Origin: Escherichia coli
GTDB lineage: Bacteria; Pseudomonadota; Gammaproteobacteria; Enterobacterales; Enterobacteriaceae
Direction: 5' to 3' (one strand)
NCBI RefSeq assembly: GCF_003334255.1
Contig: NZ_QOWU01000255.1
DNA: 353 nucleotides
The notes beneath the pieces were generated by a model. It was not told the origin of the DNA. It saw nothing but the letters and a program-made list of their open reading frames with translations, and did not search any database. The translations under genes and the position numbers were made by a program. Position 1 is the stretch's first letter; the number at the start of each line of letters is the position of its first letter. Positions 13-336 of the stretch are shown here, in pieces.

Positions 13-153
13 CTACTGCTTACACTGTAAGAACGCCGCAAACTCCGCTCCCCACAAATTCAGCCGGAACTCACACAGCGAACCGTGTAACATCCAGATG
101 GTGAAGATTACCGTCATGCAAATTGTGACGGTGATAAGCGATTTTTGCGACAT
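13..153 (-). CDS. Hok/Gef-family type I toxin (small host-killing membrane peptide, HokA-like), 46 aa
   Basis: Minus-strand ORF from ATG (plus 153-151) to TAG (plus 15-13), translating to MSQKSLITVTICMTVIFTIWMLHGSLCEFRLNLWGAEFAAFLQCKQ. It has the Hok/Gef hallmarks: a short polar N-terminus, one hydrophobic transmembrane stretch (LITVTICMTVIFTIWML), the conserved SLCE motif, and an E-x-AAF C-terminal motif with a Cys near the end. From memory it aligns best with E. coli HokA (...FTWMIRDSLCELHIKQESYELAAFLACKLKE); I cannot assign a specific paralog, so no symbol is given. AGGAGG sits 8 nt upstream of the ATG. Confidence 0.9.
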   Translation of the reverse strand: MSQKSLITVTICMTVIFTIWMLHGSLCEFRLNLWGAEFAAFLQCKQ

Positions 154-158
154 AGCGC

Positions 159-187
159 TTGCCTCCTGAGTGGAGAGGCGCTAACCT
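159..187 (+). promoter_or_regulatory. Candidate promoter for the Sok-like antisense RNA (-35 TTGCCT, -10 TAACCT)
   Basis: Plus strand has TTGCCT at 159-164, a 17-nt spacer, and TAACCT at 182-187, which would start transcription near 194. The -10 matches consensus only at the conserved T1, A2 and T6 positions. It is the best-placed candidate upstream of the 213-250 hairpin, but weak. Confidence 0.25.
162..167 (-). promoter_or_regulatory. Shine-Dalgarno sequence (AGGAGG) of the hok-family toxin gene
   Basis: Plus-strand CCTCCT at 162-167 is AGGAGG on the minus strand, followed by 8 nt (CAAGCGCT) and then the ATG at 153-151. This is a perfect core SD with a canonical spacer. Confidence 0.8.
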
Positions 188-193
188 TCTACT

Positions 194-253
194 TGTCAAG
201 GAAAGAAGTGTCAGGGCCTCGGGTTAACGTTAAAGTTGACTCGGGGCCTTTCC
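194..253 (+). ncRNA. Candidate Sok-like antisense RNA (type I antitoxin), about 60 nt
   Basis: Plus-strand transcript antisense to the toxin leader: a ~19-nt 5' tail (194-212), then a 16-bp hairpin (213-228 paired with 235-250, loop GTTAAA), then TTTCC. The helix has 12 Watson-Crick and 4 G:U pairs on the plus-strand RNA; on the minus strand those 4 positions are C-A mismatches. Size and shape (single-stranded tail plus one terminal hairpin) match the roughly 64-nt Sok RNA of plasmid R1. The 5' end is inferred from a weak promoter and the U-tract is short, so both ends are uncertain. Confidence 0.4.
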
Positions 254-307
254 ACATCAGGCCTTCAGGTTCACCTTCCAGCCATCAGCCGAAAGGCACC
301 CGCGCAT

Positions 308-336
308 AATCTACGATTTTTGCCCTGCACGGGCAA
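308..336 (-). promoter_or_regulatory. Candidate sigma70 promoter for the hok-type mRNA (-35 TTGCCC, -10 TAGATT)
   Basis: On the minus strand, -35 TTGCCC (plus 336-331) and -10 TAGATT (plus 313-308) are separated by 17 nt, with a T6 run just upstream. The predicted start at about plus 300-301 gives a leader of ~150 nt, similar to hok of R1. The downstream RNA would begin GGGUGCCUUUCGGCUGAUGG, which resembles the R1 hok mRNA 5' end as I recall it (GGCGCUUGAGGCUUUCUGCCUCAUGACGUGAAGGUGG). Hexamer matches are only moderate. Confidence 0.35.

Follow-up and report, generated by a model that had tools for sequence, protein, structure and literature searches.

The present analysis suggests, on the basis of predicted RNA folds, that the toxin mRNA of a hok-type locus of Escherichia coli carries a local hairpin that locks the hok Shine-Dalgarno (SD) sequence, shares the dcb box with the hok refolding switch, toggles with this switch and, since mok is lacking, gates hok translation directly. 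We hold this reading with moderate confidence. The mRNA is encoded by the minus strand of the window, i.e., the whole stretch of 353 nucleotides analyzed here, which contains its 5′ two-thirds and ends 12 nt past the hok stop codon. The hok/sok type to which this locus belongs is a textbook type I toxin-antitoxin system. The hairpin and its parts are the following (window coordinates):

153-183, minus strand: bipartite SD-sequestering hairpin of 31 nt (hok mRNA positions 119-149; MFE -15.0 kcal/mol)
183-178 (UAGCGC) with 158-153 (GCGCUA), minus strand: outer stem of the predicted fold
176-172 (UCUCC) with 166-162 (GGAGG, SD), minus strand: inner stem of the predicted fold
177 (C), 171-167 (ACUCA) and 161-159 (CAA), minus strand: unpaired C, loop and 3-nt bulge of the predicted fold
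162-166, minus strand: hok SD GGAGG, from sequence and alignment (GGAG in most homologues)
161-179, minus strand: 6-bp hairpin, a minor alternative register

The GGAGG sequence sits 8 nt upstream of the hok AUG (153-151). The 3′ half of the hairpin comprises this SD (166-162) and the A of the AUG, and its 5′ half, UAGCGCCUCUCC (183-172), includes the dcb box. None of 200 dinucleotide shuffles was as stable as the bipartite hairpin (z = -3.39), whose probability (P) is about 0.97 in the 360-nt full-length transcript, the flanks beyond the window being taken from a 100%-identical genome. The toxin RBS is predicted to be locked in this local RNA hairpin in the full-length mRNA.

The first-pass annotation had proposed that the SD is buried in a shorter hairpin, in which GCCUCU pairs with GGAGGC around a 7-nt loop. 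All six pairs can form (G179:C161, C178:G162, C177:G163, U176:A164, C175:G165 and U174.G166, with the loop CCACUCA at 173-167) and this helix is the MFE structure of the isolated 19-mer, but its register and extent are wrong and the bipartite hairpin is favoured. Alone, the 6-bp hairpin reaches -7.5 kcal/mol (z = -1.74), a stability equalled by 16 of 200 dinucleotide shuffles. In a 35-nt context, the bipartite hairpin is more stable by 6 kcal/mol (-15.0 versus -9.0 kcal/mol), and each pair of the 6-bp hairpin has a P of about 0.01 in the full-length transcript. Across 20 homologues, this register is 78% paired, with pair 177:163 broken in 15 of them (most carry GGAG followed by C and not GGAGGC), shows no compensatory change and does no better than column shuffles. 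That this exact helix would be the functional anti-SD structure is highly improbable. The qualitative claim of sequestration of the SD by the adjacent pyrimidine tract nevertheless holds, since per-sequence partition functions place the SD in the local hairpin with P of at least 0.98 in 21 of 22 full-length homologues. Furthermore, the anti-SD sequence that had been proposed shares bases with the known dcb box, which can alternatively pair with the GAGGC at 220-216, and this overlap provides a mechanistic link between the SD hairpin and the refolding of the mRNA.

The locus and the elements of its mRNA

The window carries an uncharacterised hok/sok-type toxin locus with a 46-aa product, which adjoins lom in lambdoid and Stx prophages. 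Its 153-13 ORF encodes a small hydrophobic toxin of the Hok/Gef family; this ORF and the presence of tac, ucb, GAGGC, dcb and fbi elements bear out the earlier assignment to the hok type. The elements that matter for the switch, for its antisense RNA and for their expression are:

13-153, minus strand: hok-family toxin ORF, 46 aa (PF01848 in homologues; PHROG 251, E = 2.8e-24; Hok/Gef family protein in RefSeq)
308-336, minus strand: putative hok promoter (-35 TTGCCC 336-331, 17-nt spacer, -10 TAGATT 313-308)
295-301, minus strand: tac GGGUGCC, at the putative 5′ end of the hok mRNA (301 is also where the Rfam model starts)
242-248, minus strand: ucb GGCCCCG; predicted partners GAGGC (closed) and tac (open)
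216-220, minus strand: GAGGC, positional homologue of the R1 mok SD, with no start codon behind it; predicted partners ucb (closed) and dcb (open)
175-179, minus strand: dcb GCCUC, invariant in 23 sequences; the RF01794 consensus pairs dcb with the upstream GAGGC
175-220, minus strand: predicted Sok-target hairpin of the open state (220-216 with 179-175, 214-210 with 185-181, 208-204 with 190-186)
159-187, plus strand: putative Sok promoter (-35 TTGCCT 159-164, 17-nt spacer, -10 TAACCT 182-187)
194-256, plus strand: candidate Sok RNA (14-nt single-stranded 5′ tail, long stem-loop, UUU; 3′ end approximate)

The tac, ucb, GAGGC and dcb elements were assigned by position and sequence following the R1 definitions (PMC9841398), whereas homology served to place the 5′ end of the transcript and both of its 3′ ends, full-length and processed. 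The putative hok promoter was read from the sequence and is conserved in the alignment; the corresponding transcription start would be located around position 301. The tac partner fbi (GGCACCC) is found 46-52 nt beyond window position 1 (L001 3400-3406). The two boxes are perfectly complementary; their pairing is conserved, with G.U variants, in 23 sequences and is predicted by RNAalifold. The extended tac/ucb stem displays compensatory swaps (U-A to C-G and C-G to G-C). The GAGG box is predicted to alternate between ucb and dcb, with tac:ucb pairing in the open state, and dcb takes part in two predicted structures, the closed-state SD hairpin, through its 5′ arm, and the open-state helix with GAGGC. 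The Sok-target hairpin is the MFE fold of the window as well as the RNAalifold consensus of both the fragment and the truncated transcripts; its GAGGC:GCCUC helix with extension is paired in 95% of cells and almost invariant.

On the antisense side, the first-pass annotation correctly noticed that the -35 box of a candidate promoter overlaps the SD. This putative promoter, located in the hok TIR, has the same hexamers and spacing as those deduced for sokW: in phage 933W, TAACCT precedes the annotated 5′ end of sokW by 7 nt and TTGCCT is found 17 nt further upstream, and the sokW promoter has been validated by mutation (PMC8621323). A generic promoter/terminator scan of the window did not bring either the hok or the Sok promoter to its threshold. 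The start of the candidate Sok RNA was positioned by homology with sokW; its predicted fold reaches -30.7 kcal/mol (z = -5.39), with a stem of 16 bp in the MFE structure (213-250).

E. coli chromosomes contain the window at 100% identity, within a lambdoid prophage and directly downstream of a lom-like gene. Copies related at 68-97% identity occur in most Stx-converting phages, in P2-like phages, on plasmids and in Salmonella chromosomes, and, of 5,426 complete E. coli genomes, about 1,500 carry the subfamily. Rfam RF01794 matches the minus strand at 301-142 (41 bits, E = 4.6e-8, below the gathering score of 59), and the 3′ hairpin of the model fits the locus poorly. Although named "sok antitoxin", this model is built on the sense strand of the hok mRNA and its consensus ends in the hok AUG; therefore, the match marks the hok leader and not the Sok-encoding strand. 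The nearest NCBIfam family is the HokA equivalog NF007290, yet the toxin scores 38.4 bits, far below the cutoff of 89. The hokA leader of K-12, disrupted by IS150 and rearranged, is unusable as a comparator.

Several features of the surroundings should also be mentioned. At positions 334-353 (L001 2992-3020), the window begins inside the intrinsic terminator (stem plus T-run) of the upstream lom-like gene, and the putative hok promoter (-35 at 336-331) starts directly after this terminator. At the other side, the annotated start codon of a downstream hypothetical gene (ATGGCACCC; L001 3398-3406) overlaps fbi; in other phage records, the annotated start of the same gene is 26 nt further on. In some Salmonella genomes, two copies of this hok subfamily stand in tandem, about 350-500 nt from each other (L024, L025, L041 and L042), and the copy L023 adjoins an Ibs type I toxin gene.

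Conservation of the SD hairpin

The homologue set comprised 44 loci with 29 distinct upstream regions, and local folding recovered the bipartite shape in all 29. A weak hairpin (-5.8 kcal/mol) was only found in decayed copies (the L021 group, including L036). Among the 23 sequences with computed pairing probabilities, the SD is paired with P of at least 0.93 in every intact copy, lower values being restricted to decayed copies with a mutated SD. The decayed copies L014, L021 and L036 have lost the SD (AGAG or CGAG), and L014 also has an early in-frame stop. Their weak hairpin is consistent with a joint decay of the toxin and of the lock.

The loop of the hairpin is hypervariable with its length kept, and the stems and spacing are conserved. 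In the outer helix, 98.3% of cells are paired. Pair 180:156 changes from C-G to U.G and then to U-A, which is the sole compensatory change, and two other pairs vary only to G.U. This tolerance of G.U is specific to the strand of the hok mRNA, which argues against a purely DNA-level or promoter explanation, even if the putative Sok promoter on the same DNA explains part of the conservation. Furthermore, the bases A182, G181, G179 and C178, which have two alternative partners, are invariant, while the variable bases have a closed-state partner only. In a shuffle control of the outer stem, the observed score was reached in 9 of 500 runs. It should be emphasized that the covariation is thin: it amounts to one double change at low divergence and lies within what related sequences give without structure. 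A profile scan of genome contigs retrieved only seven loci, all from the same subfamily, and thus no deeper divergence for covariation, and extra Salmonella loci did not bring any new hairpin variant. In four homologues (L015, L019, L020 and L026), a U-to-A change at window position 184 (mRNA position 118) adds one pair to the outer stem; there, the helix reaches the U of the hok AUG and two of the three bases of the start codon lie inside it.

State dependence of the switch and absence of mok

In the mechanism that we propose, the 5′ tac of the closed, full-length mRNA would pair with the 3′ fbi, and ucb with the upstream GAGGC, so that the dcb arm would be left free to fold back on the SD and lock the RBS. 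Once fbi is removed by 3′ trimming, tac would capture ucb, and the freed GAGGC would capture dcb and its neighbours, forming the Sok-target hairpin; the SD hairpin, stripped of its 5′ arm, would leave the SD only weakly structured. Pairing of Sok at its target would re-sequester GAGGC and allow the SD hairpin to re-form, and Sok may also trigger cleavage of the duplex. The hairpin would thereby be a direct translational gate of the toxin and not an obstacle cleared by an upstream translating ribosome, because the subfamily is devoid of a conserved mok reading frame.

Folding of the full-length and 3′-truncated mRNAs, as had been suggested in the first-pass annotation, predicts that removal of the 3′ end loosens the SD. 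The 3′ processing was simulated by cutting the transcript after the 3′ stem-loop. With 21 aligned whole transcripts and no structure supplied, RNAalifold returned tac:fbi, ucb:GAGGC and the outer SD stem for the full-length form. For the same 21 transcripts once truncated, it returned tac:ucb and GAGGC:dcb with the SD stem dissolved, and a fragment lacking ucb gave the open helix. At the level of individual sequences, GAGGC:dcb reaches P of at least 0.7 in 13 of the 22 truncated forms, in which the occupancy of the SD hairpin falls, and 8-9 of the 22 homologues are still predicted to be closed after truncation. The median cost of exposing the RBS is 14.1 kcal/mol for the full-length form, 9.9 kcal/mol for the truncated form and 13.2 kcal/mol for the truncated form with a blocked Sok target, with shifts in the same direction in 21 of 21 homologues; the "open" RBS still costs about 10 kcal/mol to expose. 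Blocking the Sok target brings the SD hairpin back to P of at least 0.98. Equilibrium folding of nascent prefixes gave mixed populations, which by itself is no proof of co-transcriptional locking. These predictions of states are fallible, since ViennaRNA misses the experimentally established open state of R1 (P = 0.02 for mok SD:dcb in the truncated 1-361 form of L029). In this truncated R1 form, the opening cost of the mok RBS drops by 8.5 kcal/mol despite the missing mok SD:dcb helix. Overall, the in silico data suggest that both competing helices exist, are conserved and depend on the state of the mRNA, whereas the 3′ processing, the actual translation output and the independence from mok are inferred.

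A conserved mok leader ORF overlapping hok and coupled to it is not found in the 22 homologues. None of them has a canonical start (AUG, GUG or UUG) 4-12 nt after GAGG, and in at least 12 of the 22 both overlapping frames are free of AUG, GUG and UUG. Many homologues have stops 5-9 codons ahead of the hok AUG, at positions that differ between copies. In the common Stx-phage type (L003 and L004), the stretch from GAGG to the hairpin is free of start-like codons, the only one, a CUG, being inside the hairpin, and L024 is entirely devoid of them. A 22-aa ORF on the minus strand (257-189; AUG, GAAGG SD), which spans ucb and GAGGC, was considered as a leader and is probably spurious, since it is not conserved (its second codon is a stop in L011, and the Salmonella copies lack the AUG). 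A 3-codon mini-ORF (GUG/AUG, AUA/AAA, GGU, UAG) is present at window positions 192-181 in about half of the homologues (L005-L013, L017, L023 and L027), a count over the 22 homologues giving 11. Its stop codon is exactly the conserved UAG at the base of the SD hairpin, and its termination could be coupled to hairpin opening in some copies; the window has GUA, which is not a start codon, at the position of its start. Since there is no conserved mok, the hairpin probably gates hok translation directly, unlike in R1 and hokW, and a direct SD gate becomes more relevant in this subfamily, not less.

We also propose, more tentatively, that this subfamily of prophages and Salmonella lost mok and that the ancestral pair formed by the mok SD and dcb was turned into an anti-anti-SD/anti-SD relay. 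In such a three-helix switch (ucb:GAGGC, GAGGC:dcb and dcb-arm:SD), 3′ processing and Sok would directly control the toxin SD, and Sok would repress allosterically, via the re-formation of a hairpin located about 30 nt downstream of its binding site, and not by blocking a leader ORF.

The established mechanism of R1 (PMC9841398; PMC11228461) offers another explanation, and reviews expect the R1 principle to apply to homologues (PMC5668327). According to it, the SD hairpin would be constitutive in all states and only opened by ribosomes that translate, or terminate on, a cryptic ORF located upstream. This ORF would be a mok equivalent that starts at a non-canonical codon or the mini-ORF ending at UAG 183-181, and Sok would act on it. 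The in-frame UUG 199-197, which has no SD, and the CUG 214-212, 2 nt after GAGG, in the mok-like frame of the window could serve such a purpose, as could the mini-ORF that leads to the hairpin base in half of the homologues, and the SD is mostly paired even in truncated transcripts. However, no start codon is conserved in position or in frame, the common Stx-phage type (L003, L004 and L047) and L024 lack any start before the hairpin, and stops break both frames at varying positions. The perfect conservation of the GAGGC box, which would fit this logic, is explained by its two pairing partners. We therefore regard this R1-type logic as unlikely for the subfamily.

The hairpin could also be a by-product without any regulatory role, as dcb, having to be complementary to GAGG, automatically matches any SD and the flanks would be conserved for the putative Sok promoter, whose -35 (159-164) and -10 (182-187) overlap the hairpin; the weak covariation statistics and the failure of the 6-bp helix to do better than chance go in this direction. 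Yet the arms of the outer stem (GCGC 181-178 and GCGC 158-155) are conserved though they lie outside both hexamers, their changes are G.U-compatible only on the hok-mRNA strand, with one compensatory, and the loop keeps its length despite its hypervariability. The z-score of the bipartite hairpin (-3.4) and the prediction of a homologous hairpin between the dcb arm and the TIR in the distant hokW argue in the same sense, so that a hairpin devoid of function seems quite improbable to us. The direct gate thus remains the reading that we prefer.

Comparison with known systems and biological meaning

The locus shares with R1 hok/mok/sok (parB; PMC9841398; PMC11228461) a Hok/Gef toxin and, as predicted, the tac:fbi lock, the alternation of ucb and dcb on GAGG(C), a Sok-target hairpin closed by GAGGC:GCCUC and an inaccessible hok SD; its putative antisense promoter would, as in R1, lie inside the hok TIR. 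It differs from R1, whose 70-codon mok starts 7 nt after GAGG and whose switch operates on the mok RBS, by the lack of a conserved mok. The target of refolding in R1 is the mok SD, and the hok SD, constitutively inaccessible, becomes available when mok is translated (PMC9841398, PMC11228461). The general statement of the first-pass annotation that Hok-family mRNAs keep the toxin TIR structured until 3′ processing is therefore not directly transferable: such a behaviour is predicted here, but it is the mok SD that refolding controls in the R1 paradigm. Predicted opening costs for R1, whose sequence was verified at 100% identity, agree with this literature (PMC11228461; PMC9841398), as the hok RBS hardly responds to truncation (17.7 to 16.5) compared to the mok RBS (16.2 to 7.7). 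In both forms of R1, the hok TIR is predicted to be engaged in long-range pairing with the 3′ part of the coding region. By comparison, the hairpin predicted to hold the SD of the window locus is short and local, with a 5′ arm overlapping dcb, and truncation and Sok blocking are both predicted to affect the hok RBS itself. Four unexplained loss-of-function changes near the hok SD of R1 (A159G, A163G, A166G and A169G in L029) all generate a GAGG or GGGG motif that matches the CCUC of dcb; their predicted effects on dcb trapping were no different from those of control A-to-G changes.

The hokW/mokW/sokW system of phages 933W and Sp5, whose toxin-antitoxin function has been shown experimentally (PMC8621323), is carried by the same phages and has identical putative Sok promoter hexamers and spacing. 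Its full-length fold is predicted to contain a homologous local hairpin, formed between the dcb arm (UAGCCUCUU) and the nucleotides immediately preceding the hok AUG. The two are nevertheless different loci and not orthologues: hokW is found at about 59 kb, compared to about 46 kb for the present locus in phage PA5, i.e., about 13 kb away in the same phages, HokW has 51 aa instead of 46, and hokW is accompanied by an annotated, canonical mokW (GAGG, 8 nt, AUG). The hokW SD is located in an internal loop and not in a stem as in the window locus, and the main switch concerns mokW (opening cost from 15.7 to 8.8, compared to 10.7 to 8.1 for hokW). The hairpin scaffold is therefore probably ancestral, and what is particular to the window locus is that the SD itself lies within the stem. 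Stx-converting phages carry two different hok loci (e.g., KP682373, 46304-46685 and 59269-59421; L037), hokW/mokW/sokW near one end and the 46-aa mok-less locus next to lom.

Sequestration of a toxin SD by anti-SD elements, in structures that succeed or exclude one another, is also known for aapA3/IsoA3 of Helicobacter pylori and for timP, and systems of the aapA3/IsoA3 type are activated after 3′ processing without any leader peptide (PMC9841398, PMC11228461). The toxins and RNA folds of aapA3/IsoA3 and timP are unrelated to those of the hok-type locus. The window locus appears to apply an aapA3-like logic on a hok-type scaffold, with the ancestral mok-SD and dcb boxes put to a new use.

Occlusion of the toxin SD has already been established for hok as well as for further type I toxins, and the advance made here is therefore incremental. 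However, the regulation of hok/sok has been assumed to proceed via a mok leader in all homologues, and control without mok would mean that this RNA switch is more modular. If true, the locus would be a natural example of antisense repression by induced refolding. Since recent surveys explicitly skipped Mok and mRNA structure (preprint 10.1101/2025.08.07.668861), taking both into account would aid the annotation of Hok loci. The subfamily is widespread, in E. coli genomes, most Stx phages, P2-like phages and Salmonella, and the finding concerns Shiga-toxin prophages, in which the paralogous hokW influences phage release.
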